A stretch of DNA of 64,000 nt. It comes from Candidatus Falkowbacteria bacterium (lineage in GTDB: Bacteria; Patescibacteriota; Patescibacteriia; XYB2-FULL-38-15). A program made the position numbers and the translations under genes. Under the pieces are notes generated by a model. The model ran no database searches. It was not told the DNA's origin and was given only the letters and a program-made list of their open reading frames with translations. This document shows positions 1,562-63,251 of the stretch, in pieces (within the stretch, counting starts at the first letter, position 1; each line of letters starts with the position of its first letter). Location of the stretch: positions 4,368-68,367 of the forward strand of contig JACRNW010000012.1 of NCBI GenBank assembly GCA_016214745.1, read 5' to 3'.

Positions 1562-4108
1562 ATGTTTGACTTCCCAGAAGTTCGTCCAATTGGTAAACAA
1601 AAACAAAATGACCCTTCGGGTCATCACCCGCATGGTGACAAAAATAGTTTAAGACCTCTGATTTTAATTTTGGGGTTTTTTGCCATTGCTTCCGCCGGCG
1701 TAATTTTATTTGCCCTATTTCAAAAATTGGGGCCGGAAGCTTCTGCCGCTCCGGGTATTTATAAAACTTTAAATTACCAGGGAAAATTGGAAGACGTTGG
1801 CGGCGTCACCGTGGCCGACGGGTCATATAATATTAAACTTACAATTTATGATGCCGCCGCGGCCGGCAACGTTCTTTGGACCGCTCGCGAGTCGGATGCT
1901 TGCGGCGCGCCGTTTAATCCGGCGGCAAAATCAGTCACGACTTCGCTTGGTGTTTTTTCAACACAACTTGGAGAATCTGGTGACTGTCCGATCAATTTGG
2001 ATTTTAATACAGATTCTTATTATCTTGGTGTGACAGTTGGCGCGGATTCGGAAATGACGCCGAGAAAAAGAATTGGCGCGGCTGGCTACGCCTTCAACGC
2101 AGATTTGTTAGATGGCCTTAATACTTCCGCGGTCGGCGGCGCTTCGGCTTTTGTTCCGGCAGCTGATTCCAGCGGAAATTTTGTTTTAACTGGCAACGTT
2201 ACTTTTGACACAAATACTTTTGCTCTTGATTCTACAAATGATAATATTGGGATCGGCACGGCGGCGCCTGATATTGCTCGTACTTTGGATTTAATAATCA
2301 GCAAAAAGTACGGAATTTATGCTTCATCAAACTCTACCACAAACCACATGGCGGTGATTTATGGCGAGGCGACAGACACAACTAACATTGATCAGATGGG
2401 CGGATATTTTTCCGCGGCAAGCCCCAGCGGAAAAGGTGTTTTTGGGACAGCGGTTACCGCCGGCAATCCGTTTATTCCAAATTATGGCGGATATTTTATT
2501 GCGGCTGGCGATTCTGGAAATGGTGTCTATGGCGAAGCTACCGCGACAACTGGGGCCACTAACTACGGCGGGTATTTCACGGCGGGGGGCGATACGGGCT
2601 ATGGAGTTTACGGTTGGGCTGCCGGCACGGGTGGAGTAAATTATGGAGGGTATTTTAGAGCAAACGGCCTTGGCGGTTATGGTGTTTATGGCTGGGCCGC
2701 GGATATGGGAGCCACAGGAAATTACGGCGGTTATTTCCAGGCTAGCGGTCAAAGTAGCTACGGCGTCTACGGCTACGCGAGCGAAGCCACGACGGTAAAT
2801 TACGGCGTCTACGGACAAGCCGAAGGCCCGGCTGGCTATGGTGTTAAAGGTTACGCGGGGAATATTGTTGGCGGAAATTACGGCGGGTATTTTGAGGGCG
2901 CCGCCGCAGGAAGTTACGGCGCTTACGGAAAAGCGCCGGGCACCGGCGGCTACGGTGTTTACGGTTGGGCTTCAAACGCGGGCGCGCCAAACTACGGCGG
3001 TTATTTTAAATCAGACGGCGCGGGCGGTTACGGCGTTTACGCGTTGGCTACTGATACCACCGCGGTCACAAACTACGGCGGCTATTTTACGGCCGCGGGA
3101 ACTACGGCGCGGGCGGTTTATGCTGAAGCCAGTGACCTTACCTCAATAAATTTTGGCGGTTATTTTATAGCTAGAGGGGTAGATGGGGGCACGAGTGGAG
3201 TTTATGGAGAAGCTACGGCTGCTGGTTCTGTTTACGGTGTTCAAGGATTTGCTTCTAATAGTGGGGCTGTAGCAAATTACGGCGGTAATTTTGCGGCTGA
3301 CGGCACTGGCGGTGCTCGTGGTGTTTTTGGTTTCGCCTCTAACGTCGCAGGCACCAATTACGGAGTTTATGGGCAAGTAGCCTCCTCGGCTGGCTGGGGC
3401 GGATATTTTACCGGCGGCAATGGGCTTTACGCTAGCAGATTTAGCATTGCTGATACAACGAGCGCCATATCTTACAACACTATCGGCGCGCCCGCGGCAA
3501 CACATACCGCAGCCGGAGAAATTGAAAACGCCTCGGATCTTTTTATTGCCGATGACTTGGAAATCGGCGGTCAGGGTTGGTCCACCGGAGGCTATACGGA
3601 CTTGGCTGAAATGATTGCTTACAGCGGAGAGGGTGAAGCTGGCGATGTGGTCGTAGTTGATGAAAACAACGATAACGCCGCGAAACTCGCGACAAAACCT
3701 TATGATCAAAGTGTTCTCGGAATAATTTCCACTAAACCGAGTTTAATAATTACCGGCGGTATTAAGGAAGGGAAATTGATGGCTGTGGCCGGCCGCGTGC
3801 CGACCAAGGTGACGAACGTAAACGGCGCGATTAAGCGCGGCGACTTACTGACAACTTCTGCGGCGCCTGGCCGCGCCATGAAGGCAACCGAGCCAGGACC
3901 GATTGTAGGTAAGGCTCTTGGAGAGTGCGACGAGAGTGAATGCACAATTTGGGTTTTTCTAAATGTTAGTTGGTATGGCGGTGTAAGAACTGAAACAACG
4001 GCAATAGTTTCTTCGGTAATTGAAGATGCCAAAAATTTGGAGAGAGAAAATCTTTTGACAAAATTATCAGAGCTATGGCAAAAAATTGTTTCGTTGTTGA
4101 AAAAATAA
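1562..4108 (+). CDS. Large membrane-anchored surface protein. It has about 12 tandem Gly/Tyr-rich repeats (NYGGYF.A.G..GYGVYG) and a C-terminal domain paralogous to the upstream ORF.
   Basis: The N-terminal hydrophobic segment reads ILILGFFAIASAGVILFALF. A roughly 66-nt periodic coding repeat spans 2400..3400. The shared motif is AGRVPTKVTNVNGAIKRGDLLTTSAAPGRAMKATEPG. Confidence 0.6.
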   Translation: MFDFPEVRPIGKQKQNDPSGHHPHGDKNSLRPLILILGFFAIASAGVILFALFQKLGPEASAAPGIYKTLNYQGKLEDVGGVTVADGSYNIKLTIYDAAAAGNVLWTARESDACGAPFNPAAKSVTTSLGVFSTQLGESGDCPINLDFNTDSYYLGVTVGADSEMTPRKRIGAAGYAFNADLLDGLNTSAVGGASAFVPAADSSGNFVLTGNVTFDTNTFALDSTNDNIGIGTAAPDIARTLDLIISKKYGIYASSNSTTNHMAVIYGEATDTTNIDQMGGYFSAASPSGKGVFGTAVTAGNPFIPNYGGYFIAAGDSGNGVYGEATATTGATNYGGYFTAGGDTGYGVYGWAAGTGGVNYGGYFRANGLGGYGVYGWAADMGATGNYGGYFQASGQSSYGVYGYASEATTVNYGVYGQAEGPAGYGVKGYAGNIVGGNYGGYFEGAAAGSYGAYGKAPGTGGYGVYGWASNAGAPNYGGYFKSDGAGGYGVYALATDTTAVTNYGGYFTAAGTTARAVYAEASDLTSINFGGYFIARGVDGGTSGVYGEATAAGSVYGVQGFASNSGAVANYGGNFAADGTGGARGVFGFASNVAGTNYGVYGQVASSAGWGGYFTGGNGLYASRFSIADTTSAISYNTIGAPAATHTAAGEIENASDLFIADDLEIGGQGWSTGGYTDLAEMIAYSGEGEAGDVVVVDENNDNAAKLATKPYDQSVLGIISTKPSLIITGGIKEGKLMAVAGRVPTKVTNVNGAIKRGDLLTTSAAPGRAMKATEPGPIVGKALGECDESECTIWVFLNVSWYGGVRTETTAIVSSVIEDAKNLERENLLTKLSELWQKIVSLLKK

Positions 4109-4248: not shown

Positions 4249-4330
4249 TCCCCCTCTACCCTTGGGGGAGAGGGTTGGCCCGCCTGCCACGCTAGCGCTG
4301 GCGTTGCGGGCAGGGGTGAGGGGTATGCGG
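4249..4330. repeat. GC-rich hairpin repeat, copy R-a. It is the reverse complement of the copy inside the RT gene at 39826..39912.
   Basis: The sequence cccctctacccttgggggagagggttggcccgcctgccacgctagcgctggcgttgcgggcaggggtgagggg is the reverse complement of 39838..39905 with few mismatches. Confidence 0.8.
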
Positions 4331-4332
4331 GG

Positions 4333-4361
4333 TTGACAAAAAGGTAAAAATGTGGTATTAT
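4333..4361 (+). promoter_or_regulatory. Sigma70-like promoter (TTGACA, 17 nt, TATTAT). It belongs to a promoter-leader module that recurs at 37463 and 49596.
   Basis: The sequence is ggTTGACAaaaaggtaaaaatgtggTATTATaaat. It is nearly identical to 49594..49630 and 37462..37498. Confidence 0.55.
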
Positions 4362-4478
4362 AAATGGTAAAATTAAAGGATGGAGTTTAGGCGAAAAAGC
4401 TCTTAAATTAAAGCTTTTTCGGGTAAGCTTCAACTTTTGAAGAGCCGTCTCGGCAGCGCCGAGACAAGGAGGTTGGCA

Positions 4479-5096
4479 ATGAAGGGTTTGATGACGTGCG
4501 CGGCGCTCGGATTCGTGTTCGTGGCTGGCTGCTACGGGAGCTACCAGAACTACGGCGATGGCCGAGGGGAAGACAGCTTCCCGATCGTGACCTGCGAAGT
4601 CACGGTGACGACGAACGCAGACGGCGCGACCATCACGGTCGACGGCGTCGTGGCAGGCGGTACCGTGGAACTCACGGTGGGCTCCCACACTTTCGTGGCC
4701 ACGGCTGCCGGTTACATTCCGGCGAGCGCGGTCGTGGACGTGGACGAGACCTGTGCGCCTGTCGCGCTTCGGCTTCGGCCGAACCTGAACGGCGACTACG
4801 ATCTCGTCTTGCACAACAGCATCTACGACCGGCTCCTGCTGCACCTCGACCAGGACGAGGAAGGGAATCTCGTCGGCTACGACTGGTACGCCGATGACCC
4901 GGGACACAGCTTCCAGGAATTCACCGGCACTGTTTCGTTCGATGGGGAGGCTTATCTCCTTTCGGACGATTCGGTCCGGCTGAATCTCACTGGCCGCTGG
5001 ACTCCGCCGGGAATTGGCGGCATCTCTCGGATCGTTGGTACCTGGATTTCCGCCGCAGGAGGCGACGGAGAGTGGCTCGCCGAGTCGCGGCCGTAG
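4479..5096 (+). CDS. High-GC lipoprotein with a PEGA-like domain.
   Basis: A strong SD (aaggagg) sits 7 nt before the ATG. The lipobox is FVFVAGC. The PEGA-like stretch reads TVTTNADGATITVDGVVAGGTVELTVGSHTFVATAAGY. The ORF is about 63% GC against about 40% in the flanks. Confidence 0.6.
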   Translation: MKGLMTCAALGFVFVAGCYGSYQNYGDGRGEDSFPIVTCEVTVTTNADGATITVDGVVAGGTVELTVGSHTFVATAAGYIPASAVVDVDETCAPVALRLRPNLNGDYDLVLHNSIYDRLLLHLDQDEEGNLVGYDWYADDPGHSFQEFTGTVSFDGEAYLLSDDSVRLNLTGRWTPPGIGGISRIVGTWISAAGGDGEWLAESRP

Positions 5097-11439: not shown

Positions 11440-11676
11440 ATGATTAGACAAAATAACAGCACAGCAACAACCGGACGGAAGACCTGCTACTTCTGCGCCA
11501 ATAACGTCAAGGAAATTGATTATAAAGATGAAGCGGTCCTTAGAAAATTTATTTCTTCTTACGGGAAGATTGTCCCGCGACGCCGGAGCGGAGTTTGCAC
11601 AAAGCATCAACGTAAGTTGGCGCTTGCAATAAAACGCGCTAGAATTCTCGGGATTTTGCCTTTTACAAATAAGTAA
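11440..11676 (+). CDS. rpsR: 30S ribosomal protein S18.
   Basis: The sequence reads CYFCANNVKEIDYKDEAVLRKFISSYGKIVPRRRSGVCTKHQRKLALAIKRAR. Confidence 0.9.
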   Translation: MIRQNNSTATTGRKTCYFCANNVKEIDYKDEAVLRKFISSYGKIVPRRRSGVCTKHQRKLALAIKRARILGILPFTNK

Positions 11677-23327: not shown

Positions 23328-24629
23328 TCATTTATTAAATAATTTTTTACGGCGGAGGAGCTTGTGATAGCCAATGGCAAAACGGTGGGCTTCATCGCGA
23401 ACTCGGAGCAAAATATCTTTGTGCAATTCAGCGACGCGGACGAGTTCAGGATTATTTTGATCGGCAATCAGCCGGTCTTGTTTGCGGTCAAAACCTTTGG
23501 CAACACCCAGCACCGGAATTTTTATTTTTTTCTCGGAGAGAATCTCGCGAACAGCGTTGATTTGCCCCCAGCCGCCGTCAACCAAAATTATATTTGGTAA
23601 TGGCCAATCAGAAAGATGCTTTAATCGTCGCGTCATTACTTCTTTCATCATCCCGACATCGTTTGGTGTGGTTAAAGTTTTAATTTTAAATTTTCGGTAT
23701 TCATTTTTATTTGGTTTACCATCTTCAAAAACAACCATGCTGCCGGTCGCCGAAGTGCCGCTGATGTTTGAAATGTCATAACCCTCAATTCGACCAAAAA
23801 TGTCAATTGTTCCGCTGGATACGAATAGCGAATCTTTTGCGAATTTGCGAATTCGTAAATTCGAAGTTAATTCGTTATTCGTATCCTTTGTCAAAATAGC
23901 CACATCCTGGATATGCTCCAGAGAAAAAATTTGATTGCGAAGTCGCGCTGCTTTTTCAAAATTTTCTTCGCGGCTCGCAATAGCCATTTCCTTTTTTAAA
24001 TTTTTAATGATTTTTTCTTTTTTTCCTTCAAAAAATAAAATTAAATGGTGGATGAGGCGGCGGTAATCTTTTATTGAAACAAATCCGGCGCAAGGTGCAG
24101 GGCATTGTTTTAAATGATAATGAAGGCACGGTTTTTTAGCCATAACCACGCAATCGCGGAAAGGAAAAATTTTCCGGCGCAGAATATCAAGCGCGGCGCG
24201 AAGCGAGGAGGCACTCGTGTACGGACCGAAAAGTTTGGCGATTTGTTTTTTCTCGCCGGATGTCATCCGAGCCAATTCTAATCCACGCAGTAAAAAAATC
24301 CGAGGAAATTTTTCTTTGCTGATCGCCACGTACAAAAACGATCTATCATCTTTTTCTTTAACATTATATTTTGGTAAATATTTTTTTATCAAATTGGCTT
24401 CCAAAATTAAAGCTTCAATCACGGTAGGAGTTTTTTGGTAATCAATATCTGCAATTTTTGAAACTAATTTTTCAATTCTAATATCGTGCGGTCGGTCAAA
24501 ATAGCTTTTTACCCGATCGCGGAGCGAAGTGGCTTTTCCGACATAAATAATTTTACCCACGGCATTTTTCATTAAATACATGCCCGGGGTTTTAGGAAAT
24601 TTTTTTATTTTATTTTTTAATTCCGGCAT
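23328..24629 (-). CDS. uvrC: Excinuclease ABC subunit C, short form. The start is reassigned to the internal Met.
   Basis: A GIY-YIG motif (GMYLMKNAVGKIIYVGKATSLRDRVKSYF), a UvrBC-interaction region, and a C-terminal RNase H-like endonuclease region are present. The longer ORF start at 24779 would read through the high-GC insert. Confidence 0.85.
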   Translation of the reverse strand: MPELKNKIKKFPKTPGMYLMKNAVGKIIYVGKATSLRDRVKSYFDRPHDIRIEKLVSKIADIDYQKTPTVIEALILEANLIKKYLPKYNVKEKDDRSFLYVAISKEKFPRIFLLRGLELARMTSGEKKQIAKLFGPYTSASSLRAALDILRRKIFPFRDCVVMAKKPCLHYHLKQCPAPCAGFVSIKDYRRLIHHLILFFEGKKEKIIKNLKKEMAIASREENFEKAARLRNQIFSLEHIQDVAILTKDTNNELTSNLRIRKFAKDSLFVSSGTIDIFGRIEGYDISNISGTSATGSMVVFEDGKPNKNEYRKFKIKTLTTPNDVGMMKEVMTRRLKHLSDWPLPNIILVDGGWGQINAVREILSEKKIKIPVLGVAKGFDRKQDRLIADQNNPELVRVAELHKDILLRVRDEAHRFAIGYHKLLRRKKLFNK

Positions 24630-27900: not shown

Positions 27901-30018
27901 GGGATGTGCTTCGGCATGTTTCGGGGATTTTTTTAATTCCCGAATTTCATCGCGCAAAATGGCGGCCAGCTCGAATTGTAAATTTTTCGCCGCCTCTTTC
28001 ATTTGCCTTTCTTTTTCGTTTATAATTTCTTCAATATTTTTTCCTTTTTCGCCGATAACATCCAGATCCAAAATATTTTTAACTTTTTCTTTTTTATCTT
28101 CTTCGCCGACAATATCTTTGATTTTCTTTTGAATAGTTTTTGGTGTGATGCCGTGTTTTTTGTTATAGTCCATTTGCGTTTTTCGCCGACGTTCGGTTTC
28201 GCGGATGGCGCGTTCCATTGAGCCAGTCATTTGATCGGCATAAAGTAAAACTTGCCCGTGGACATTTCTCGCCGCTCGGCCAATCGTCTGGATAAGCGAA
28301 GTTTCACTGCGCAAAAATCCTTCTTTGTCCGCGTCTAAAATGGCGACTAGGGTCACTTCCGGCAGATCCAATCCTTCGCGCAATAAATTAACGCCGACCA
28401 GAATATCAAATTTCCCCCGGCGAAATTCAGTCAGAATTTTTATCCGGTCCAATGTTTGAACCTCACTGTGGATGTAGTTAACTTTAAATTTTTTTTCCGC
28501 GAGATATTCGCTTAAATCCTCGGCCATTTTTTTAGTCAGAGTCGTGACAAGGACCCGTTCGTTTCGTTTTACGCGGTCGGCAATTCGTTCCATTAAATCA
28601 TCAACTTGAGATTTTTCACCGGAATTTTTTGGTGTGATCGGGCGAACAATAATTTCCGGATCAATCAAACCAGTCGGTCTGATAATTTGTTCAACAACTT
28701 GTCCGCTTCGAGTTAATTCATAATCCGCCGGCGTGGCCGAAGTATAAATTGTCTGCGGCATTCGCGTTTCAAATTCGCTGAATTTCAGCGGCCGATTATC
28801 GGCGGCGGAAGGCAGACGAAAACCAAAATCAATCAACGCTCTTTTTCGCGAAGCATCACCGTCATACATTCCGGAAATTTGCGGCACGGTGACATGTGAT
28901 TCATCAATTACCATTAGCCAATCGGATAGGTTGTGGTTATTTTTGCCGGGGGATACGAATTGCGAATCTTTTACGAATTTACGAATTTGCAAATTCGCAG
29001 TTAATTCGTTATTCGTATCCTTTTGTGATGAGCGCGGGAAATAATCTAAAAGTGTCTCCGGCGGTTCGCCCGCGGCGCGGCCAGAAAGATGGCGAGAATA
29101 ATTTTCAATCCCATGGCAGTAGCCGACTTCTTTTATCATTTCTAAATCATAATTGGTCCGGCGCTCCAATCGCTCGGCTTCAAGCAGTTTTCCATTTTTA
29201 TTAAAATAATCCAAGCGGTCTTTTAATTCTTCTTTGATTGTTTTGAACGCTCGCTCGCGTTCCGGGCCCAGCGTGACAAAATGTTTGGCCGGAAAAATCC
29301 AAACGTCGGATGGTTCATCTTTTATTTTTCTTGTTACTGGGTCAATCGCAAAAATATTTTTTATTTTCTGGTTGGCGGACTCTACTCGGTAAATAATTTC
29401 TTGGTTCACGGGCATTATTTCCAAAGTCTCCCCACGCAAACGAAATTCGCCGCGTTTTAAATCGGAGTTAGTCCGGTTAAATTGCATGGTGATTAACTGG
29501 TTCAATAAATCAGCGCGGGTGATAGTTTGATCTTTAGCCAAATGCAAAACAATTTTTTCATAGGTTTCCGGGGCGCCCAAACCATAAATACAAGAAACCG
29601 AAGCGACGATGATTACATCGCGCCGCGTCAAAAGCGCCTGAGTCGCGGCGTGGCGGAGGCGATCAATTTCGTCATTGATCATGGCTTCTTTTTCAATGTA
29701 AGTATCGGTTCGCGGCAAATATGCTTCAGGTTGGTAGTAATCGTAATAGGAAACAAAATATTCCACGGCATTATCCGGGAAAAATTCTCGAAACTCATTG
29801 CAAAGCTGCGCCGCCAGGGTTTTATTGTGGGCGATGACAAGAGTGGGTTTATTGATTTTTGCGATCACATTTGCCACAGTAAAAGTTTTGCCTGAACCGG
29901 TGACGCCGAGAAGCGTTTGATGACCGTAATTTTTTTTCAAACCACTAACAAGTTCGGCGATTGCTTTTGGCTGATCGCCCGATGGTTTAAATTTAGATTT
30001 TAATTTGAATTTGTTCAT
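27880..30018 (-). CDS. uvrB: Excinuclease ABC subunit B. The start is reassigned to MNKFKLKSKF.
   Basis: The sequence reads GDQPKAIAELVSGLKKNYGHQTLLGVTGSGKTF, with helicase motifs, a DESH box, and a C-terminal UVR domain (ELAAILRDEIRELK). Confidence 0.95.
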   Translation of the reverse strand: MNKFKLKSKFKPSGDQPKAIAELVSGLKKNYGHQTLLGVTGSGKTFTVANVIAKINKPTLVIAHNKTLAAQLCNEFREFFPDNAVEYFVSYYDYYQPEAYLPRTDTYIEKEAMINDEIDRLRHAATQALLTRRDVIIVASVSCIYGLGAPETYEKIVLHLAKDQTITRADLLNQLITMQFNRTNSDLKRGEFRLRGETLEIMPVNQEIIYRVESANQKIKNIFAIDPVTRKIKDEPSDVWIFPAKHFVTLGPERERAFKTIKEELKDRLDYFNKNGKLLEAERLERRTNYDLEMIKEVGYCHGIENYSRHLSGRAAGEPPETLLDYFPRSSQKDTNNELTANLQIRKFVKDSQFVSPGKNNHNLSDWLMVIDESHVTVPQISGMYDGDASRKRALIDFGFRLPSAADNRPLKFSEFETRMPQTIYTSATPADYELTRSGQVVEQIIRPTGLIDPEIIVRPITPKNSGEKSQVDDLMERIADRVKRNERVLVTTLTKKMAEDLSEYLAEKKFKVNYIHSEVQTLDRIKILTEFRRGKFDILVGVNLLREGLDLPEVTLVAILDADKEGFLRSETSLIQTIGRAARNVHGQVLLYADQMTGSMERAIRETERRRKTQMDYNKKHGITPKTIQKKIKDIVGEEDKKEKVKNILDLDVIGEKGKNIEEIINEKERQMKEAAKNLQFELAAILRDEIRELKKSPKHAEAHPGDPMKE

Positions 30019-31075: not shown

Positions 31076-31145
31076 AAACCCCGCCCCGATTTTGCCCCTC
31101 ACCCAACCCTCTCCCCGATGGGGAGAGGACTAAGGTGAAGGGGGT
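31076..31145. repeat. GC-rich hairpin repeat, copy R-f.
   Basis: The sequence is cccctcacccaaccctctccccgatggggagaggactaaggtgaaggggg. It shares the CCCCTCAC and CTCTCCCC-GNNG-GGGAGAG modules with the copies at 37533, 50699, 4249 and 39826. Confidence 0.7.
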
Positions 31146-36076: not shown

Positions 36077-36151
36077 TGGGGTGGCTACTGGGAGTTGAAC
36101 CCAGGCCAGTGGGACCACAACCCACTGTTCTACCGTTAAACTATAGCCACC
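36077..36151 (-). tRNA. tRNA-His (anticodon GTG).
   Basis: It has a G-1 extra nucleotide, acceptor GGTGGCTA/TAGCCACC, anticodon loop TTGTGGT, T-loop GGTTCAACTCC, and an encoded CCA. Confidence 0.75.
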
Positions 36152-36152
36152 A

Positions 36153-36228
36153 TGGTGACCCCGCTAGGAATCGAACCTAGATATCCAGCTTAGAAGGCTG
36201 GTGTTCTATCCATTGAACTACGGGGCCG
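36153..36228 (-). tRNA. tRNA-Arg (anticodon TCT).
   Basis: Cloverleaf: GGCCCCG-TA-GTTCAATGGATAGAAC-A-CCAGCCTTCTAAGCTGG-ATAT-CTAGGTTCGATTCCTAG-CGGGGTC-A-CCA. Confidence 0.75.
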
Positions 36229-36322
36229 TAATAAGTTAAAAGTTTAAAGTGAAAAGTTAAAAGTTTTTGAGTAAATTATTTTTTAATATAACAAACAATT
36301 TTCAGATTGTCAATCGTGAATT

Positions 36323-36499
36323 TCTCCCCTTAAGATAAGGGGAGATTAAGAGGGGTTATGAGCGGTGGATTTTAGTGGCCGGTTCATAACGCCCCCGCCC
36401 GCCACGCAAGCCAGCCCCGCCTGCAACGCTATGCTTGCATTAGCGGGCAGGTTGCTGGCGTTGCGGGCAGGCCCAGCCCCTCTTACCTTAAGAGGGGAG
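36323..36499. repeat. Structured GC-rich direct repeat, copy 1, flanking the xer gene (related to the R-a/R-b core).
   Basis: It is nearly identical to 37648..37827. The end hairpins are tctcccctta-ag-taaggggaga and cccctctta-cc-ttaagagggg. The core is gctggcgttgcgggcagg. Confidence 0.8.
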
Positions 36500-36502
36500 T
36501 TA

Positions 36503-37420
36503 TCATTTCCCGCGTCGGCGGCCGTGAAAACTTTTGTGCACGTCGCGAAGTTGTTGATTTGTGATATGCGTATAAATTTGCGTAGTAGTAATGGAAGAAT
36601 GGCCGAGCATGGCCTGGACCGAACGGATGTCGGCGCCGTTCATCAATAAATCCGTGGCGTAAGAATGGCGCATGGTGTGCGGCGTAACTTTTTTGGTGAT
36701 GCCGGCGATTTTAGAATATTTTTTTACGAGCCGTTCCACGCTCCGGGGAGTGAGAGCCGCTTCACTCTCATGCGCCCGGTCGTGGGAAACGAACAAAAAC
36801 GGTGAAACGTCTTGGCGCGCCTCCAGATATTGTTTGACCCAAAACTTGGCCTGGTTTGATAAAAAGACTATGCGCGGTTTGTCGCCCTTGCCGCGGACTG
36901 TAAATTCCTCTTTTTTTAAATTGACTTGTTCTTTTTTTAAATTTGCCAGCTCAGAAACGCGGAGTCCGGTGGAAAAAAGCATTTCCACAATCGCCTTGTC
37001 TCGTTTTTTTATAATTTCCGGCGTCTCGGCGAGCGTTGGCGCTTCAAGTAGCCGCTCCAAATCGCTTCCTTCTAAAAAATCCACCACGCGTTCGGGCATT
37101 TTGCCCAATTCAATTTTTTCCGCAGACAAAGTTTTGATGTCGCGCTTGGCCAGATATTTCAAAAAAGCTCGTAGGGCGATCAGATGATAATTTTGCGTAT
37201 TCTTTTTTAATTCTCTTCCTGTTTCGTCGGCAAAACGATTAAGCCAAAGGCGATACTGCCTAACCTTTTCTTGGGTAATGCCGGAAGGGGAGGAATTGCC
37301 TGCCCACTCGTTAAACCTTTTTAAATAAAAATCATAATTCCGTATGGTCTTGGAGGAACGGTTTTTTTCTATTTCCAAATATTCCAGAAATTGAGTGATC
37401 AAAGTGTTGAGGTTGGCCAT
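36503..37420 (-). CDS. xerC: Tyrosine site-specific recombinase, XerC/XerD-like.
   Basis: The N-terminal SAM-like domain reads FLEYLEIEKNRSSKTIRNYDFYLKRF. The catalytic C-terminus reads HTMRHSYATDLLMNGADIRSVQAMLGHSSITTTQIYTH. Confidence 0.85.
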   Translation of the reverse strand: MANLNTLITQFLEYLEIEKNRSSKTIRNYDFYLKRFNEWAGNSSPSGITQEKVRQYRLWLNRFADETGRELKKNTQNYHLIALRAFLKYLAKRDIKTLSAEKIELGKMPERVVDFLEGSDLERLLEAPTLAETPEIIKKRDKAIVEMLFSTGLRVSELANLKKEQVNLKKEEFTVRGKGDKPRIVFLSNQAKFWVKQYLEARQDVSPFLFVSHDRAHESEAALTPRSVERLVKKYSKIAGITKKVTPHTMRHSYATDLLMNGADIRSVQAMLGHSSITTTQIYTHITNQQLRDVHKSFHGRRRGK

Positions 37421-37462: not shown

Positions 37463-37520
37463 TTTACTATTGACAAAATCCTCAAAATGTGGTATATTTA
37501 ATTGTTAGTAAATAGTTCTT
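37463..37520 (+). promoter_or_regulatory. Conserved promoter-leader module (TTGACAaaatcctcaaaatgtggTATATTtaattgttagtaaa), paralogous to 4333 and 49596.
   Basis: Aligned by eye to 49594..49650 (ttgacaaaatggttaaaatgtgttattctaaattgttagtaaa) and to 4333..4375. Confidence 0.55.
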
Positions 37521-37532
37521 TTAAAGGTAAAA

Positions 37533-37610
37533 CCCCCTCACTCCAACTCTCTCCCCGAAGGGGAGAGAGAGTCTCCTCGCCCCATTGGGGAGAGGATTAA
37601 GGTGAGGGGG
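37533..37610. repeat. GC-rich hairpin repeat, copy R-e (double hairpin).
   Basis: The sequence ccccctcac...ctctccccgaaggggagagagagtctcctcgccccattggggagagg...gtgaggggg has flanking inverted repeats. Confidence 0.75.
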
Positions 37611-37647
37611 CAACAAGTTCACAGTTTTCTTTTGGCGGCGCTCTGGT

Positions 37648-37827
37648 TTCTCCCCTTAAGGTAAGGGGAGATTAAGAGGGGTTATGAAAGGTGGATTTTT
37701 AAAATCACAATTCATAACGCCCCCGCCCGCCACGCAAGCCAGCCCCGCCTGCAACGCTATGCTTGCATTAGCGGGCAGGTTGCTGGCGTTGCGGGCAGGC
37801 CCAGCCCCTCTTATCTTAAGAGGGGAG
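37648..37827. repeat. Structured GC-rich direct repeat, copy 2 (partner of 36323..36499).
   Basis: About 97% identical over about 175 bp. Confidence 0.8.
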
Positions 37828-37923
37828 GAGCGAGCACAATCAAAAGAAGGCTGGGAAACCGGCGCTTCCTCTTTGCCACATCGGCGAGGAGAAAGCTTTC
37901 GCGTAAGGCGGAGGCAAAAGGAA

Positions 37924-38391
37924 ATGAAGATGGATACCCTGCGTTCCGCGTCCCACCTGCAGCGCGAGATCGGCGACGAGCTGTTCGCGGCTCTCGTGAA
38001 CTCGGACAACACCGCGGCGGTGCGGAAGTTCGCCGCGACGCTCGTCAAGTCCGCCCTCCCGACCGAGATGACGGTCGGCGGGGTCACCTACGAGATCCTC
38101 TCGTTCCTCAAGGGGGACGAGAAGAGCGTGGTCGGCCACACCATGGTCGAGCGGGCGAAGGAGATGGGCGCCAACCTCGGGGAGGAGGATTGCGAGCGCT
38201 TCCTGAAGAACCAGTCCGACATCCCCGCCGCGCTCTGCGGCAAGGTCGCCTTCGTCTTCCCGGACTTGCGGCACCCGGACGACCGCGAGTACGTCGCGGA
38301 CCTCGACTGGGGCGGCGACGGCTGGTACCTGCTCTGGGGCTGGCTCTCGCGCGACTGGCGCGGCCGCGGTCGTCTCCTTCGCCGCAAGTAA
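37924..38391 (+). CDS. DGR target protein (156 aa, high GC) with a C-terminal variable region.
   Basis: RBS aaaggaa. The last roughly 45 codons (38262..38387) align to the TR at 38735..38870. Differences fall mostly at TR adenines (AAC->GGC/CGC/GAC/CTC; GAC->GGC). The 3' 15 nt are identical (cgtctccttcgccgc). Confidence 0.75.
   Translation: MKMDTLRSASHLQREIGDELFAALVNSDNTAAVRKFAATLVKSALPTEMTVGGVTYEILSFLKGDEKSVVGHTMVERAKEMGANLGEEDCERFLKNQSDIPAALCGKVAFVFPDLRHPDDREYVADLDWGGDGWYLLWGWLSRDWRGRGRLLRRK
38262..38387 (+). repeat. DGR variable repeat (VR).
   Basis: It is homologous to the TR. All TR AAC codons are substituted in the VR. An IMH-like GC-rich 3' end is present. Confidence 0.75.
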
Positions 38392-38734: not shown

Positions 38735-38870
38735 ATAATTCTGCGCAACCCGAACGGCAACCTCTACGTCGCCTACCTCAACTGGAACGACGACCGCTGG
38801 ATCGTGAACTTCAACTGGCTCGACAACGACTGGAACGACAACGATCGTCTCCTTCGCCGCCAGTCTCTTC
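38735..38870 (+). ncRNA. DGR template repeat (TR), a noncoding template rich in AAC codons.
   Basis: It contains seven in-frame AAC triplets where the VR has G/C-containing codons. The ORF called at 38711..39172 is the TR read in frame and overlaps avd on the other strand. Confidence 0.75.
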
Positions 38871-38900
38871 ATCAACGCTCCCGTCCCTTTGGGCGGGAGT

Positions 38901-39209
38901 TTATTTTCGGAAGGATTGTAAATTTTTTATCCAACCACCAAGCATTATACCGGCGGACGAAAGTTTTTGGGAGAGCCGCGCGTATTTTCCGGTATCTATT
39001 CCTTTTGCTTCCCAGAGAATTGCCACAAAAAATTTCAGATTGTCTAATTTACGATTTAATTGCAGCAAAAAGTTTAATTTATCTTCGCGTCTTGTATATT
39101 GCGCGGTTAAGGCCAATTCCAAAATATTTACGAATAATTCGTCTATTTTTTTGCCGAGCGTGTAGCGTGTGAGGCGGGGCAGATGCGTTAAAAAACTATG
39201 CCACAACAA
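38901..39209 (-). CDS. avd: DGR accessory variability determinant (Avd, four-helix-bundle protein).
   Basis: It is 102 aa. The C-terminal LGGWIKNL resembles the Bordetella Avd LGSWIARV. Four-helix-bundle / 23S-IVS family features are present. It lies between the TR and the RT but is transcribed divergently from the RT. Confidence 0.65.
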   Translation of the reverse strand: MLWHSFLTHLPRLTRYTLGKKIDELFVNILELALTAQYTRREDKLNFLLQLNRKLDNLKFFVAILWEAKGIDTGKYARLSQKLSSAGIMLGGWIKNLQSFRK

Positions 39210-39234
39210 ATAAGTTTCTTTGAAAGTGGAGATA

Positions 39235-40362
39235 ATGGGAATCTCGGTAAAATTCCGTTGGGGGGGGGGATTTAAAGGGCGGATCGTTCCGAAAATTCAA
39301 TTGGCTCATAAATTTGAAGATATTATTTCTTTAGAAAATTTATTTTTGGCCTGGCAGGAATTTTTAGTTGGCAAAAAGGGTAAGCGCGACGTCCAGATTT
39401 TTGCTCGCGACTTGGCTGATAATATTTTAGCGCTCCACGAAGATTTAGCAAATAAAACTTATCGCCACGGCGGATATGAAAGTTTTTACGTCAACGATCC
39501 GAAACGCCGACATATTCATAAAGCGGCGGCGCGCGACCGTTTACTCCATCACGCCGTTTACAGAATTCTTTATCAGTTTTTTGAAAAAACATTTATTGCC
39601 GACTCCTTTTCCTGTCGCTTAGGGAAAGGAACACACAAGGCCATTAATCGTTTCCGGGCCATGGCTTTTCGGGTAAGCCAAAATCACACGCGGACGGTTT
39701 GGGTTTTGAAATGCGACATTAAAAAGTTTTTCGCGAGCATTGACCACGAGGTTTTACTTAAAATTTTGAAAGAATATATTCCGGATGAAAATATTTTGTG
39801 GCTGCTGAAAAATGTGATAGAAAGTTTTGCCACTCTCCCCCTCACCCCTGCCCGCAACGCCAGCGCTAGCGTGGCAGGCGGGCCAACCCTCTCCCCGAAG
39901 GGGCGAGGGGACGAAAACGGTGTTGGTCTGCCGCTTGGCAATTTGACCTCGCAACTTTTCGCCAATGTTTATATGAATGTTTTTGATCAGTGGGTTAAAC
40001 ATAAACTGAAAGCCAAAAATTATTTACGCTATGCCGACGACTTTGTTTTTCTTTCCGAAAATCGTGAGTGGCTTTTGAATATCGTGCCGCAGATTAAAAA
40101 GTTTTTGGCGGAAGAATTAAAACTGACGCTTCATCCAAAGAAAATTATTTTGAAAACCGTCGTTTCGGGCGTTGATTTTTTGGGTTGGGTGTGCTTCTCG
40201 GACCATCGCGTCCTGCGGCAGACGGCGCGGCGGCGGATGTTAGCGCGTATTTTGGAAAATCCCACACAAGAAACTCTGCAATCATATTTAGGTCTTCTGA
40301 AACACGGCAATACTCTTGGAGTACGGTGGCAGACTCTTATAAATTATTGGTTGTGGGGGTGA
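39235..40362 (+). CDS. DGR reverse transcriptase.
   Basis: Motifs present: ENLFLAWQEFLVGKKGKR; GLPLGNLTSQLFANVYMN (DGR-type motif 4); LRYADDFVFL (YADD). There is no maturase/X domain and no intron structure. A G10 tract sits at 39260..39269 near the N-terminus. An in-frame GC-hairpin repeat insert lies at 39826..39912. Confidence 0.85.
   Translation: MGISVKFRWGGGFKGRIVPKIQLAHKFEDIISLENLFLAWQEFLVGKKGKRDVQIFARDLADNILALHEDLANKTYRHGGYESFYVNDPKRRHIHKAAARDRLLHHAVYRILYQFFEKTFIADSFSCRLGKGTHKAINRFRAMAFRVSQNHTRTVWVLKCDIKKFFASIDHEVLLKILKEYIPDENILWLLKNVIESFATLPLTPARNASASVAGGPTLSPKGRGDENGVGLPLGNLTSQLFANVYMNVFDQWVKHKLKAKNYLRYADDFVFLSENREWLLNIVPQIKKFLAEELKLTLHPKKIILKTVVSGVDFLGWVCFSDHRVLRQTARRRMLARILENPTQETLQSYLGLLKHGNTLGVRWQTLINYWLWG
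39826..39912. repeat. GC-rich hairpin repeat, copy R-b, inserted in-frame within the RT gene.
   Basis: It is the reverse complement of 4249..4330. It translates as ATLPLTPARNASASVAGGPTLSPKGRGDENG without stops. Confidence 0.8.
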
Positions 40363-49545: not shown

Positions 49546-49593
49546 TGTAATCATACCAGAAAGGGGGTGGCGTGTCAATCTCGGCGACAAGCC

Positions 49594-49650
49594 GGGTTGA
49601 CAAAATGGTTAAAATGTGTTATTCTAAATTGTTAGTAAAATTGGTCTTTT
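49594..49650 (+). promoter_or_regulatory. Conserved promoter-leader module (ggTTGACAaaatggttaaaatgtgtTATTCTaaattgttagtaaa).
   Basis: Paralogous to 4333 and 37463. Confidence 0.55.
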
Positions 49651-50698: not shown

Positions 50699-50752
50699 GT
50701 CCCCCTCACCTCAATCCTCTCCCGCAAGGGGAGAGGAGGAAATTGTGGGGAT
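50699..50752. repeat. GC-rich hairpin repeat, copy R-g. It is preceded by a ttttggat tandem repeat at 50641..50695.
   Basis: The sequence is ccccctcacctcaatcctctcccgcaaggggagaggagg. Confidence 0.7.
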
Positions 50753-56925: not shown

Positions 56926-57003
56926 GGCCCTATCGTCTAGTCTGGTCTAGGACACCACGCTTTCAATGTGGTAACCCGGGTTCGAATCCCGGTGGGGCTA
57001 CCA
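56926..57003 (+). tRNA. tRNA-Glu (anticodon TTC).
   Basis: Cloverleaf: GGCCCTA-TC-GTCTAGTCTGGTCTAGGAC-A-CCACGCTTTCAATGTGG-TAAC-CCGGGTTCGAATCCCGG-TGGGGCT-A-CCA. The 3' end is overlapped by IR1-L and by the recombinase ORF tail. Confidence 0.75.
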
Positions 57004-58525
57004 GAAAAAAACTTTTCGGATTTTCGGTAAAAATTTGGTTGACGGCGCACAGCGCCGCCCACGGGTTTTTCGGCGAATTGTCGCCGTTTTTTATTTCCCC
57101 CCACACCACTTGTCCGCCCGTAAGGCGGAGGTTCGAGCCAAATATTTTTTTGGCCATAACCTTTTTGTCTAAAAGGTTATGCTCCCGCGCGATTTTAGGC
57201 AGATTCTCTGCCTCTTTTATCCATTCCTTCATCGGTTCGATCCAGCCAGTCCGCTTTTGTTTCAGGTGGACAATTTTTTCTTCCAGCGACTTTTTCTCAC
57301 TTATAAATTTAGCCTTCTTTTCTAAGTATACCTCTCGCTCAATATCCTGCTCCAAGTAACTATCTAAAAGTCGCTGTAGCTTCATTTTTAGGGACTCTAT
57401 GGTATTTTTGATCTCTTGAACAAAAGCGGCCGAGGATTGGGCATCTTGGTTTTTGTCTTTTTCGAGCAAGGCGGTTAATTGCGTTGCCCAATCCTCGCTC
57501 AAAGAAAATTTTTCAAGCAAAAGGGATGTCTGCTCATCTAAACACTCCTGGCGAATACAGGGCTCGTCACATTTTATTGCCTTGTTCTTTTTGGTGCAGT
57601 GATAATAAATATAATCATGAGTATTACCATTCTTTTGTTTTTTCACCCTGTATTCGCCAGTTATGCCCATACCACAAGTGCCACATCTTAACATGCCGCA
57701 AAATGCTTGCGGTTCATTTTTTGTTTTGTGGTGCGGTCTGCTTTTTTGCTTCAAAATATTCTGTACTTGGTCAAAAATTTTCTTTGAGATGACTGGCTGA
57801 TGTTTGCCCTCATAAAGTTCTTTACCGTACCTAAAAAATCCAACATAAAACGGATTGGAAAGGATAAAAGAAACTCTGTCTCGTTTCCAGTGTTTACCAT
57901 TACGCGATGTTATTCCTTGTTGCGCCAAAAAGTTAGAGATATCCTCTAGTCGTGAATTGCCTTGCGCGTATAGTTCAAAAGTTTTTCGCAAGATTTCCGC
58001 TTGCTTTTTATCCACAGCCACATTTTTAGTGCGGGGGTCGTTGAAATACCAAAACGGCGCAAGGCCGGGATACTCTCCGCGCCTAACTTTTTGGCGCATA
58101 CCTCGCTTTACATTTTCGGATAATGAATCAACATAATATTTGCTTTGCCCAAAAGCAATATTTAGCATAAATTTCCCTTGTGGCGTGCTTTCAAACCAAA
58201 ACTGCGGAAATTTTAAGGCCGTAATATGCCCGCAATCTAAAAGATAAATTATCTTTCCACCATCCACAGAATTGCGCGCTAATCGGTCGGGATGCCACGA
58301 AATTATGCCATTTGCTTCCCCGCGCTCTATTCTTTCTAACATGGTATTAAAAACCGGTCTGCCTGGAATTTTAGCCGATTGTTTTTCTATTAACTCCTCA
58401 ACAATAATCAGACCTTCATTTCTGGCAAAGGCGCGCAATTCTGTGGTCTGGGCTTCAATACTCAAAACTTGCTTATCTTCCACATCCGTGGATTTGCGGG
58501 CATACAAAAAGAATTTTTGTTCCAT
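56963..58525 (-). CDS. Large serine recombinase (resolvase/invertase N-domain + recombinase domain + zinc ribbon). Its C-terminal roughly 45 aa are encoded by IR1-L.
   Basis: Catalytic N-terminus LYARKSTDVEDKQVLSIEAQ ... GIISWHPDRLARN. Zinc ribbon CGMLRCGTCGMGITGEY..YYHCTKK. A C-terminal coiled coil is present. The start is reassigned to MEQKFFLYARKST. Confidence 0.85.
   Translation of the reverse strand: MEQKFFLYARKSTDVEDKQVLSIEAQTTELRAFARNEGLIIVEELIEKQSAKIPGRPVFNTMLERIERGEANGIISWHPDRLARNSVDGGKIIYLLDCGHITALKFPQFWFESTPQGKFMLNIAFGQSKYYVDSLSENVKRGMRQKVRRGEYPGLAPFWYFNDPRTKNVAVDKKQAEILRKTFELYAQGNSRLEDISNFLAQQGITSRNGKHWKRDRVSFILSNPFYVGFFRYGKELYEGKHQPVISKKIFDQVQNILKQKSRPHHKTKNEPQAFCGMLRCGTCGMGITGEYRVKKQKNGNTHDYIYYHCTKKNKAIKCDEPCIRQECLDEQTSLLLEKFSLSEDWATQLTALLEKDKNQDAQSSAAFVQEIKNTIESLKMKLQRLLDSYLEQDIEREVYLEKKAKFISEKKSLEEKIVHLKQKRTGWIEPMKEWIKEAENLPKIAREHNLLDKKVMAKKIFGSNLRLTGGQVVWGEIKNGDNSPKNPWAALCAVNQIFTENPKSFFLVAPPGFEPGLPH
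56999..57135. repeat. Inverted repeat IR1-L (137 bp), a perfect inverted copy of 58737..58873. It starts in the tRNA-Glu 3' end.
   Basis: The reverse complement of 58737..58873 matches base-for-base as read. It contains the hairpin ccgcc-cgtaa-ggcgg. Confidence 0.85.
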
Positions 58526-58736: not shown

Positions 58737-58873
58737 CGAACCTCCGCCTTACGGGCGGACAAGTGGTGTGGGGGGAAATAAAAAACGGCGACAATTCGCC
58801 GAAAAACCCGTGGGCGGCGCTGTGCGCCGTCAACCAAATTTTTACCGAAAATCCGAAAAGTTTTTTTCTGGTA
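58737..58873. repeat. Inverted repeat IR1-R.
   Basis: Partner of 56999..57135. It generates the spurious ORF 58688..58918. Confidence 0.85.
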
Positions 58874-58887
58874 TCACTTTACAACGA

Positions 58888-59009
58888 AATACGAACCTTT
58901 TTTGAACAAAATTATTAGGGGTTTATGGTGTAGGGGCTGGCCGCCCCTACAACCCCGCAAATTCGTGCGGGCAAAAAGGAAGGGGTTTTAGGGGAGGGAA
59001 TTTTTGCCC
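58888..59009. repeat. Inverted repeat IR2-L (122 bp), a perfect inverted copy of 63129..63251, composed of three hairpins.
   Basis: gaaatacgaaccttttttgaacaaaattattaggggtttatggtgtaggggctggccgcccctacaaccccgcaaattcgtgcgggcaaaaaggaaggggttttaggggagggaatttttgccc equals the reverse complement of 63129..63251. Confidence 0.85.
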
Positions 59010-63128: not shown

Positions 63129-63251
63129 GGGCAAAAATTCCCTCCCCTAAAACCCCTTCCTTTTTGCCCGCACGAATTTGCGGGGTTGTAGGGGCGGCCA
63201 GCCCCTACACCATAAACCCCTAATAATTTTGTTCAAAAAAGGTTCGTATTT
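63129..63251. repeat. Inverted repeat IR2-R.
   Basis: Partner of 58888..59009. Confidence 0.85.

Follow-up and report, generated by a model that had tools for sequence, protein, structure and literature searches.

The window, that is the whole stretch of 64,000 nucleotides of Candidatus Falkowbacteria DNA analysed here, carries a DGR cassette in which a reverse transcriptase (RT) gene is accompanied by an Avd accessory gene, a template repeat (TR) and a variable repeat (VR) (Table 1). The gene is a DGR RT by several features: a Pfam RVT_1 domain (E 4.3e-24), the catalytic YADD, a motif B of DGR type, its likeness to the Bordetella bRT (8ub7_A, phmmer E 1.8e-37), and the presence of Avd and of the TR/VR pair beside it. 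The same bRT structure is the best PDB match of the RT model in Foldseek (E 6.9e-22, TM 0.86, rmsd 2.5). Among 121 homologues, PLGNLTSQ is invariant and ADD nearly invariant, and the window RT possesses all the invariant residues, namely D166, D256, PLGNLTSQ and Y268/R270 beside the near-invariant YADD. The mechanically called ORF of the RT begins at a TTG at 39220, and the codon numbers of the element described below (207-231) are those of this ORF (39220..40362).

Table 1. Features of the DGR locus and copies of the palindromic repeat family in the window
Feature	Position	Strand	Remarks
Intergenic long-form copy of the composite element	4251..4323	-	between ORF 1562..4108 and PEGA-domain gene 4437..5096
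Short-form family copy, intergenic	31095..31143	+	downstream of cNMP-binding gene
Family copy, two hairpins within outer stem, intergenic	37530..37611	+	between integrase and variable-protein genes
DGR variable repeat (VR)	38267..38389	+	3' end of variable-protein ORF 37684..38391
DGR template repeat (TR)	38742..38864	+	
Avd accessory gene	38901..39209	-	Pfam bAvd, E 1.2e-10
DGR reverse transcriptase CDS	39301..40362	+	start inferred from NCBI protein P0001, 353 aa
RT motif A / RT3, DIKKFFASIDH	39715..39747	+	
Composite palindromic element, whole	39838..39912	+	75 nt, codons 207-231, peptide PLTPARNASASVAGGPTLSPKGRGD
Outer left arm, CCCCTCACCCC	39838..39848	+	common to orthologues L081 and L082
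Nested 36-nt hairpin module, TGCCCGCAACGCCAGCGCTAGCGTGGCAGGCGGGCC	39849..39884	+	among RTs, in this genome's only
Outer right hairpin module, AACCCTCTCCCCGAAGGGGCGAGGGGAC	39885..39912	+	common to orthologues
RT motif B / RT4, GLPLGNLTSQ, DGR-type	39925..39954	+	
RT motif C, catalytic YADD	40030..40041	+	
Family copy, intergenic	50700..50751	+	upstream of H+-PPase gene

Between motifs A and B, the RT gene contains a composite palindromic element of 25 codons, which keeps the frame and is free of stops. An earlier note, made from the sequence alone, had described here an in-frame, MITE-like dispersed repeat of 87 bp (39826-39912) with another copy in intergenic DNA. The repeat is real, the frame and the site between the motifs are as described, and the other copy does lie between genes, on the opposite strand at 4251-4323; however, the unit itself runs from 39838 to 39912, and 39826-39837 (FATL) is native flank. 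In relatives without insert, the native loop counts only 5-7 residues, e.g. SFATEGKKGVGLP, so that 39838-39912 is an insertion and not native RT sequence. Its GC content is 0.69, against 0.44 in the flanking RT sequence. The outer left arm (39838-39848) is complementary to GGGGCGAGGGG (39900-39910) at 10/11 positions, and the two constitute terminal inverted repeats. Of the hallmarks of a MITE, the element displays these inverted repeats but not the target-site duplication, no direct repeat being found around the copy in the RT or around that at 4251. Folded by itself, it is only modestly more stable than shuffled sequence (z -1.9).

Other identities were considered for the element. With 75 nt it is too small to hold intein blocks, an endonuclease or splicing motifs, which rules out an intein or a self-splicing intron. 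A terminator function was dropped because the flanks present the order T-run, hairpin, A-run and neither strand has a hairpin followed by T. Finally, the Rfam search gave no match at E <= 1 over 39838-39912, and returned only two tRNAs and sub-threshold chance matches.

The element is a member of a multi-copy dispersed palindromic repeat family of the same genome, whose other copies in the window are intergenic. The 4251 copy is located upstream of the PEGA-domain gene, immediately upstream of a promoter-like motif, and 39838-39910 is 96% complementary to it over 73 nt. A 38-mer identical between these two copies occurs nowhere else, and none of 100 shuffles matched (0/100). Within a left stretch of 59 identical nt, the nested module agrees fully (100%) with its intergenic partner; this identity over 59 nt indicates that the nested module is very recent, and that exchange between copies does occur. 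Besides, 18 nt of the nested 36-nt module are also present in the 180-nt repeats at 36321-36502 and 37647-37830. Related 180-nt repeats border a tyrosine recombinase gene (36503..37420) near the RT. A tie between this neighbouring recombinase and the inserts was rejected, the gene being found in the syntenic Falkowbacteria loci and absent at most other insert-bearing loci.

Comparison with orthologues reveals a two-step history of the element. Loci L081 and L082/L083 are syntenic with the window locus, with the same succession integrase-VP-Avd-RT-rpsO-NYN-PNPase, and display the element in a 39-nt form from which the 36-nt core is absent. In orthologue L084, a different element (GTCATTGC...GCAATGAC) occupies the same position. 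An older 39-nt hairpin module (CCCCTCACCCC plus AACCCTCTCCCCGAAGGGGCGAGGGGAC) had been established by the time of the common ancestor of the window RT and its syntenic orthologues, and the 36-nt hairpin came to lie within it later, in this genome only. Two routes are conceivable for this second step: an insertion into the older module, or short-patch gene conversion with a long-form copy like 4251-4323 as donor. The lineage specificity expected by the earlier note is thus true of the nested 36 nt (39849-39884) but not of the outer 39 nt, and a single recent lineage-specific event has to be abandoned since the outer 39 nt are already common to the syntenic orthologues. As to its reservation that the same segment might turn up in RTs of unrelated taxa, the outer module was found in orthologues only, among the RT relatives covered. 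We also rejected concerted evolution as the only cause of insert conservation: the right module includes a C at 39904 (within GGGGCGAGGGG), a derived, RT-specific base shared by the RT copies in three genomes and absent from the paralogous copies.

In the AF2 model of the RT (mean pLDDT 85.9), residues 202-234, which include the insert, are coil, and pLDDT falls below 50 at 217-220 and 225-231. The insert comes after two helices (176-186 and 190-201) and contributes to neither. According to this model, it would form a disordered loop linking the post-motif-A helices to motif B, probably exposed to solvent, in agreement with the surface location that the earlier note had proposed to look for by modelling. 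Insert-bearing RTs are under purifying selection (dN/dS 0.13-0.19), and the changes unique to the window branch are mostly synonymous (32, with 8 nonsynonymous), with an N/S lower than in the orthologues. Clean adenine-specific TR/VR pairs are found at 23/24 insert-bearing loci versus 78/82 insert-free loci. The pair of the window itself shows 22 mismatches at adenines and 15 at non-adenine positions, i.e. 59% of mismatches at A, a proportion that reaches at least 80% in 101/105 other loci; in a separate count, 21/28 TR adenines and 14/82 non-A positions differ. The window TR agrees with the orthologous TRs, and the non-A changes are located in the VR; the drift has therefore taken place in the VR, not in the TR. 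Its own TR/VR pair being an outlier, the window DGR is only putatively active at present; translation through the insert and activity of the window's own RT are inferred. Of the two outcomes envisaged in the earlier note, a tolerated insertion or an inactivating one, the evidence comes down mostly on the side of tolerance, with the caveat of the 15 non-adenine VR mismatches to TR.

The insertion is not a one-off either, as roughly half of the closest RTs carry unrelated hairpins in the same loop. Inserts of at least 4 aa are present at the loop in 64 of the 121 close homologues (53%), the remaining 57 having only the short native loop; at any other internal RT site, an insert occurs in at most 2 sequences. 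Among 172 loci, 36 bear an insert at the loop and 136 the short native loop only. The inserts of these 36 loci fall into 18 sequence-unrelated clusters, one same family being present in opposite orientations, and stacked inserts are found in P0010, P0003 and P0046. Insert types are interleaved over the RT tree. Inheritance by descent with losses only was rejected, and multiple insertion events are needed, because the nearest relatives of insert-bearing RTs have other inserts or none and because a same family is found in both orientations; the NJ tree of the RTs is too weak to count these events. All inserts (36/36) are in frame and stop-free, in locus sets chosen by intact RT matches, where frame-disrupting insertions would be under-sampled. 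They reach 114 aa alongside intact RTs, and L004, with a motif A-to-B span of 96 aa, has 17/17 of its TR/VR mismatches at A. In 1.3 Mb of CPR DNA, copies of the insert families number 22 at the RT site and 22 elsewhere, the latter being a lower bound as the flank was sampled over about 10 kb per genome; within 3 kb of the RT, the count is 15/22. The loop is thus a hotspot for many unrelated hairpin repeats in RTs of the ultra-small CPR bacteria. Full-text literature searches brought up no account of inserts in the DGR RTs of this group.

The left junction differs by about 5-20 nt among elements at the loop, and the insert junctions examined have no target-site duplication, no fixed nucleotide junction and, apart from conserved AGTTTT (Ser-Phe) codons upstream, no common target word. 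The signature of classical site-specific transposition is missing, given that there is neither duplication nor fixed junction. PYPS and like families have identical junctions and replace the same native codons, which is what had suggested the inheritance by descent rejected above.

What the inserts have in common is the capacity to form hairpins. Their longest perfect stem measures 9 bp in the median and at least 8 bp in 25/35 of them, compared with a median of 5 and 13/173 in RT-gene control segments of the same length. The C-rich strand is mostly the sense strand, and the antisense strand folds better in 28/35 inserts; we attribute this bias to the lack of C in stop codons, not to an antisense function, and it led us to reject selection for a hairpin in the sense mRNA. 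The inserts are also strongly conserved at the nucleotide level. Three-way identity is 95% in the insert versus 75% for the gene mean, five-way identity in a second insert family is 92% versus 59%, and synonymous positions within inserts are conserved as strongly as catalytic motifs, or more. Since inserts exceed their host gene in nucleotide conservation, pure tolerance does not explain them. Those of L064, L076 and L146 are AT-rich perfect palindromes of which no other copies are detectable, and between L075 and L108 paired changes keep a perfect palindrome.

We consider it probable that the element is an in-frame, non-autonomous repeat of REP/MITE/RPE type with a two-step origin, borne by an enzyme that is functional, in a loop which acts as a hotspot subject to an open-reading-frame filter. 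The element would be read as a disordered surface loop of 25 residues and the enzyme would remain functional. Hairpin elements of many unrelated families have entered the loop-coding site repeatedly, in both orientations and sometimes by stacking, and the surviving copies would be only those in frame and stop-free, mostly with the C-rich strand as sense. As cause of the hotspot, the explanation we favour is that elements insert preferentially at the site and turn over there, presumably with this filter acting afterwards, and retention of the inserts may be reinforced by some nucleotide-level constraint. That no transposase or other mobilising enzyme was recognised, in a non-systematic look, counts against this explanation, as do the missing transposition signature, the outlying TR/VR pair of the window and the high conservation of the inserts, which mere insertion followed by tolerance does not predict.

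Other readings share part of this evidence. It is possible, albeit on the unlikely side, that small hairpin elements home to, or land in, the loop-coding site between RT3a and motif B of CPR DGR RTs specifically, or that this site hosts a selected DNA or RNA hairpin; in both versions, unrelated palindromes would be actively targeted to it and maintained there. Their passage from one diverged RT gene to another would then outpace the evolution of the genes themselves, and the retroelement's own machinery or a structure-specific recombinase might assist it. Likewise on the unlikely side, repeats might insert at random, the loop being simply the only harmless in-frame site of the RT and the inserts neutral and functionless. 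The predicted disorder of the loop, the short and sequence-variable native loop, the left junction shifting by several codons and a strand bias accounted for by stop-codon avoidance all fit such tolerance, for which Rickettsia palindromic elements provide a precedent of tolerated in-frame palindromes (PMC10969869). Yet this hardly accounts for an occupancy of 53% in close homologues by at least 18 families, in both orientations and in stacks, nor for a site of about 20 bp having as many family copies as the rest of the 1.3 Mb, intergenic DNA included; moreover, inserts carried neutrally in a disordered loop would be expected to diverge faster than anything else, yet they are strongly conserved at synonymous positions. 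A selected cis-acting hairpin, acting as a structure in RNA or DNA or as a palindrome bound by protein, which might regulate RT expression or take part in DGR transactions and for which any stable hairpin would suffice, so that unrelated sequences were recruited, appears improbable. A strong hairpin is indeed the sole feature common to the inserts, including the AT-rich ones of L064, L076 and L146, two independent families are more conserved at the nucleotide level than the gene that hosts them, the paired changes of L075/L108 preserve the palindrome, and 15/22 family copies cluster at 3 kb or less from the RT. But about half of the close relatives and 79% of the wider set lack an insert, and their TR/VR pairs are just as cleanly A-specific, so that DGR function does not depend on the hairpin. 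The weaker fold of the sense RNA in 28/35 speaks against an mRNA hairpin, the region is without Rfam family match and, mobile palindromic repeats being all hairpins by nature, a shared hairpin is expected even without function.

Inactivation of the window RT by the insertion, or by the nested 36 nt specifically, with a decaying DGR, is very improbable in our view, even though the window has the sole non-adenine-specific TR/VR pair among the 24 insert-bearing loci (15/37 mismatches non-A). The insert ends 7-8 residues ahead of motif-B residues whose bRT equivalents contact the template base and the dNTP (10.1101/2023.10.23.563531). Against such decay, the ORF is intact with all catalytic motifs, constraint is not relaxed on the window branch (N/S = 8/32), the nested module is very recent whereas the 15 VR changes would have needed a long time, and larger inserts coexist elsewhere with intact RTs and clean TR/VR pairs (L004). 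The least credible proposal, to which we give almost no weight, is that the segment is native RT sequence that seeded the intergenic copies, or an assembly artefact from a repeat-induced misjoin. The RT and 4251 copies are near-identical, so that the direction of transfer is unreadable from the pair alone, and the nested 36 nt are known from one assembly only (P0001, 1 contig). However, only a short native loop is seen in 136/172 loci and 57/121 homologues, the outer module is present in three independent orthologue assemblies, the common flanking words of 11-12 nt are below typical assembler k-mers, and a misjoin would not restore the RT frame at both sides.

The preferred reading, a repeat that entered in frame at a hotspot, echoes several known systems. 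Rickettsia palindromic elements (RPEs; Ogata et al. 2000, 2002, summarised in PMC10969869), of about 100-150 bp, occur in many unrelated genes, with 44 insertions in Rickettsia conorii (PMC10969869). They are the closest precedent, as dispersed palindromes lying in frame in coding genes and translated with the host protein, at sites tolerated by the fold, with several families in a small reduced genome. The elements here differ by their size (30-140 nt), by being mostly GC-rich in AT-rich CPR genomes, by the convergence of 18 or more unrelated families upon a single loop of a single gene family, where stacking and turnover take place, and by a conservation above that of the host gene. As host phylum and base composition differ, the likeness is claimed as an analogy in mode only. 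With REP/BIME, ERIC, Correia and MITE-like repeats, the elements share short non-coding modular hairpins that are mainly intergenic, like the other copies in the window, and a proneness to nesting and inter-copy recombination. They are distinguished by the lack of target-site duplication and of a cognate transposase or RAYT recognised in a non-systematic look; in-frame intragenic copies, exceptional in those families, are the rule at the RT loop.

RTs of group II introns and non-LTR elements possess a variable region between RT3 and RT4, and telomerase has an insertion in the fingers domain. The position between motifs A and B is likewise where RT lineages accommodate extra sequence, but those regions are ancient, folded and lineage-defining, whereas the extra sequence here is disordered, of recent date, and has its origin in mobile hairpin DNA. 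Yeast mitochondrial byps, which derive from GC clusters, are skipped by the ribosome, while inteins and introns splice out. Like byps, inteins and homing introns, the inserts described here are selfish-type sequences that persist in conserved coding regions, often recurring at one position in diverged hosts, and their conservation is higher than that of the gene around them. Unlike them, they are in frame and stop-free in 36/36 cases, which argues for plain read-through.

These observations extend to the candidate phyla radiation the in-frame protein palindromes that were classically a Rickettsia curiosity. One loop of the DGR RT is refilled by unrelated hairpins while its motifs, purifying selection and, mostly, the adenine signature persist, making of this loop a naturally validated permissive site for engineered insertions into DGR RTs. 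The length heterogeneity that the inserts create can also mislead the classification of RTs, and the calling of genes, in CPR metagenomes. They offer a tractable system to study target preferences or cis functions of small hairpin repeats, and if the site proved to be targeted or maintained, this would be a selfish or cis-regulatory insertion of a new kind, specific to one gene and compatible with its protein.

The gene that hosts the element encodes the reverse transcriptase (RT) of a diversity-generating retroelement (DGR), since its ORF carries the Pfam domain RVT_1 beside an adjoining bAvd accessory gene, a template/variable repeat (TR/VR) pair is present, phmmer relates it to the Bordetella DGR RT (bRT; E 1.8e-37) and its AlphaFold model finds bRT 8ub7_A as top PDB match (TM 0.86). 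The MAG that hosts it belongs to Candidatus Falkowbacteria (CPR/Patescibacteria), and the identical NCBI protein, P0001, is 353 aa long. A GC-rich block inside this ORF matches 73 nt of an intergenic copy, read from the opposite strand, with 96% identity, a match reproduced in 0 of 100 shuffles; an identical 38-mer common to both copies is found nowhere else within the window. The earlier note had placed here an in-frame repeat copy of 87 bp. The in-frame copy stands, its extent does not: the first 12 nt are native flank, and the inserted unit occupies the 75 nt between motif A (DIKKFFASIDH) and motif B (GLPLGNLTSQ), with a GC of 0.69 versus 0.44 for adjacent RT sequence. Because ~180-nt direct repeats of the window also contain 18 nt of the inner module, the family is modular. 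The element belongs to a dispersed palindromic family as a composite, in-frame copy.

Features of the window, with positions and distinguishing traits
Feature	Position	Remark
RT ORF	39220..40362	380 aa
Inserted unit	39838-39912	75 nt, exactly codons 207-231 (sequence read against frame); peptide PLTPARNASASVAGGPTLSPKGRGD
Nested hairpin in the unit	39849-39884	36 nt, TGCCCGCAACGCCAGCGCTAGCGTGGCAGGCGGGCC
Long intergenic copy	4251-4323	73 nt matched, opposite strand
Other family copies, intergenic	31095-31143, 37530-37611, 50700-50751	
TR	38742-38864	
VR	38267-38389	end of ORF upstream of RT
Variable-protein gene, GC-rich region	37936-38390	
Hairpin, then T-run	38878-38900	CTCCCGTCCCTTTGGGCGGGAG; between TR and convergent avd gene
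~180-nt direct repeats	36321-36502, 37647-37830	~95% identity; end in inverted CTCCCCTTAAG...CTTAAGAGGGGAG motifs
Tyrosine recombinase gene	36503..37420	between the direct repeats
tRNA-His and tRNA-Arg genes	36077-36227	immediately beside the direct repeats
42-nt promoter-like motif	4327-4368, 37464-37505, 49591-49632	TTGACA ... TGTGGTATTAT
88-nt AT-rich element	23802-23889, 28936-29023	86% identity; internally palindromic (GGATACGAATAGCGAA...TTCGTATCC)
137-nt inverted repeats	56999-57135 / 58737-58873	100% identical, 1.6 kb apart
123-nt inverted repeats	58887-59009 / 63129-63251	100% identical, 4.1 kb apart

The window element arose in two steps. The native loop at this site, as seen in insert-free relatives, is 5-7 residues long (e.g. 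SFATEGKKGVGLP and SFxSTKPGVGLP). The locus has syntenic orthologues at three RT loci from other genomes or metagenomes (L081, L082/L083 and L084), with the common gene order integrase, variable protein, Avd (minus strand), RT, rpsO, NYN and PNPase. At the same site L081 and L082 carry CCCCTCACCC(C/T)-AACCCTCTCCCCGAA(G/T)GGGCGAGGGGAC, which is the window element without its central 36 nt; on this sequence comparison, the outer hairpin module of 39 nt is old and the nested one specific to the window genome. The long intergenic copy has the same long form. Its left 59 nt agree with the RT copy at every position (100%); the three mismatches are confined to the right hairpin, where the RT arm has a C (GGGGCGAGGGG) common to orthologous RT copies and absent from the paralogues. 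Either the 36-nt module would have nested into both copies or the RT short form would have been converted over a short patch by a long-form copy, and the pattern fits either route.

The earlier note described a single insert in one RT gene; in this RT clade, inserts prove to fall in the same loop repeatedly and almost nowhere else. The stretch between motifs A and B is known to vary among RT lineages. When the window RT was aligned with its 120 best homologues (60-80% identity, all from the candidate phyla radiation, CPR), 64 of the 121 sequences had an insert in this loop of 4 residues or more, and each remaining internal site had one in at most 2 sequences. The peptides resemble translated palindromic repeats of different kinds (LPLTPTLSPNGRGD, PPLTPPRGGGE, LLRRSAPRNDK, LDSRFRGNDK, CHSHRNGNPDNCRLDSRCDGNDK, VASNGNHPYPSLERRGY), and some RTs, e.g. 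P0003 and P0010, stack two or three elements. At the DNA level, 172 loci were compared (80 in species-representative genomes, another 80 in metagenomes, 11 retrieved for single proteins, plus the window); inserts are present in 36, all 36 in frame and stop-free, and fall into at least 18 clusters without detectable mutual similarity. Some families are found in both orientations, depending on the RT (L001 vs L084; L004 and L014 vs L086; L075 vs L108). In a loop-masked tree insert types are interleaved, the closest RT relatives usually having a different insert or none. BLAST of these inserts against 1.3 Mb of RT loci located 22 copies in the RT loop and only 22 elsewhere, 15 of the latter within 3 kb of the RT.

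P0046 (474 aa) has 114 extra residues in the loop, a pile-up of several repeat-derived peptides with a partial duplicate of the start of motif B (VGLPPGNLT), which suggests that the target region was duplicated during insertion. A rare second site, beyond residue ~264 of the window RT and located between motifs B and C, is occupied in P0084 and P0006/L081: the P0084 insert, KPHPYPPLLGERQREG, resembles the PYPS peptide family of the main site, and that of L081, at the same position, has 17 aa. In L075, a perfect palindrome with a 17-bp stem (3897-3934) occupies a second position in the RT gene, past motif C; its 18-nt core, CATACGATATATCGTATG, is also present in an element 7.6 kb off (11481-11522); since protein length is unchanged, it replaced coding sequence rather than adding any.

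The feature shared by the inserts is the hairpin. The longest perfect stem in 35 distinct inserts has a median of 9 bp and reaches at least 8 bp in 25, versus a median of 5 bp in 173 same-length segments of the same genes, 13 of which reach 8 bp. Some inserts are GC-rich and have family members elsewhere in CPR DNA (families GTCATTCCCGC..., ...CGCAATGAC and CCCTCTCCCC...), and the L108 element is also present in L079 and L045; for the AT-moderate perfect palindromes of L064, L075, L076 and L146 no further copy was found within the 2 Mb sampled. Between L075 and L108, changes in one arm are paired with changes in the other, so that the palindrome stays perfect. The more stable fold belongs to the antisense strand in 28/35 inserts, the sense strand being the C-rich one, which argues against selection for an mRNA hairpin. 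The simplest reason is that an open-reading-frame filter passes the C-rich orientation only, because stop codons have no C.

The enzyme probably tolerates the insert. In the AF2 model of the window RT, confident overall (mean pLDDT 85.9), residues 202-234, among them the insert (207-231), form a predicted disordered coil, with pLDDT <50 at 217-220 and 225-231, after helices 176-186 and 190-201 and before the motif-B strand. Aligned with bRT, the insert falls in a short linker (~158-173) and ends 7-8 residues ahead of the bRT residues I181, G182 and Q187, which are reported to contact the template base and dNTP (cryo-EM, 10.1101/2023.10.23.563531). Insert-bearing orthologues evolve under purifying selection (pairwise dN/dS 0.13-0.19 at dS 0.66-1.27), and the window branch has 32 synonymous versus 8 nonsynonymous unique changes, so that constraint is not relaxed. 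In an automated TR/VR search over all fetched loci, TR adenines accounted for 80% or more of the mismatches in 23/24 insert-bearing loci with sufficient upstream sequence, many at 100%, versus 78/82 insert-free ones. The sole insert-bearing exception is the window, where 22 mismatches fall on adenines and 15 on other bases. The other outcome raised by the earlier note, that the element has killed the RT, is unlikely, although this odd VR lends it some weight. As the window TR agrees with orthologous TRs, the extra changes belong to VR, which has drifted or been replaced; mainly on account of its 15 non-adenine changes, we do not call the window DGR demonstrably active.

The DGR cassette and the integrase, which the ~180-nt repeats enclose, may both belong to an integrated or invertible/excisable module. 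The variable-protein gene has a far higher GC than the genome (0.36-0.45 in most 1-kb windows), with long stretches of at least 72% GC (40-nt windows). The hairpin directly after TR looks like a bidirectional terminator, so that a Bordetella-type spacer RNA would scarcely fit there. The promoter-like motif directly adjoins a GC-rich hairpin repeat at 2 of its 3 sites, and the AT-rich element represents a second, unrelated palindromic family. The two inverted-repeat pairs could be insertion-sequence ends, invertible segments or assembly features.

The inserts are also better conserved than the gene that carries them. The 39 nt common to the window, L081 and L082 show 95% three-way identity, tied only by motif A, versus a gene mean of 74.6%. 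In a second, unrelated family (L003, L168-L171), whose RT cores are just 74-84% identical, a 51-nt insert reaches 92% five-way identity versus a surrounding average of 59%, motif A being at 0.77 and YADD at 0.74. Were they neutral passengers in a disordered loop, the inserts should evolve faster than the rest of the gene, contrary to what they display. Constraint at the nucleotide level (structure or binding site), homing-like recent spread into diverged RT genes and homogenisation against other genomic copies are all possible.

We propose that hairpin repeats would enter preferentially at the loop site, with turnover and nesting into earlier elements, that selection would then retain only in-frame, stop-free copies, and that the insert peptide would be read through in translation. 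Neither target-site duplications nor a fixed junction were found at inserts of the RT site, nor was a mobilising enzyme, and Rfam has no family for the element. By analogy, the closest described phenomenon is the Rickettsia palindromic elements, in-frame palindromic repeats that protein folds likewise accommodate (Ogata 2000, 2002, reviewed in PMC10969869). The RT inserts differ from them by their CPR host and small, GC-rich elements, in that many unrelated families converge on one loop of one gene family, and by a conservation exceeding that of the host gene. Roux et al. (PMC8144416), who defined the CPR-restricted DGR clade 2, do not mention inserts, and our literature searches turned up no account of such RT-loop inserts. 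The hotspot and the conservation of the inserts merit follow-up.
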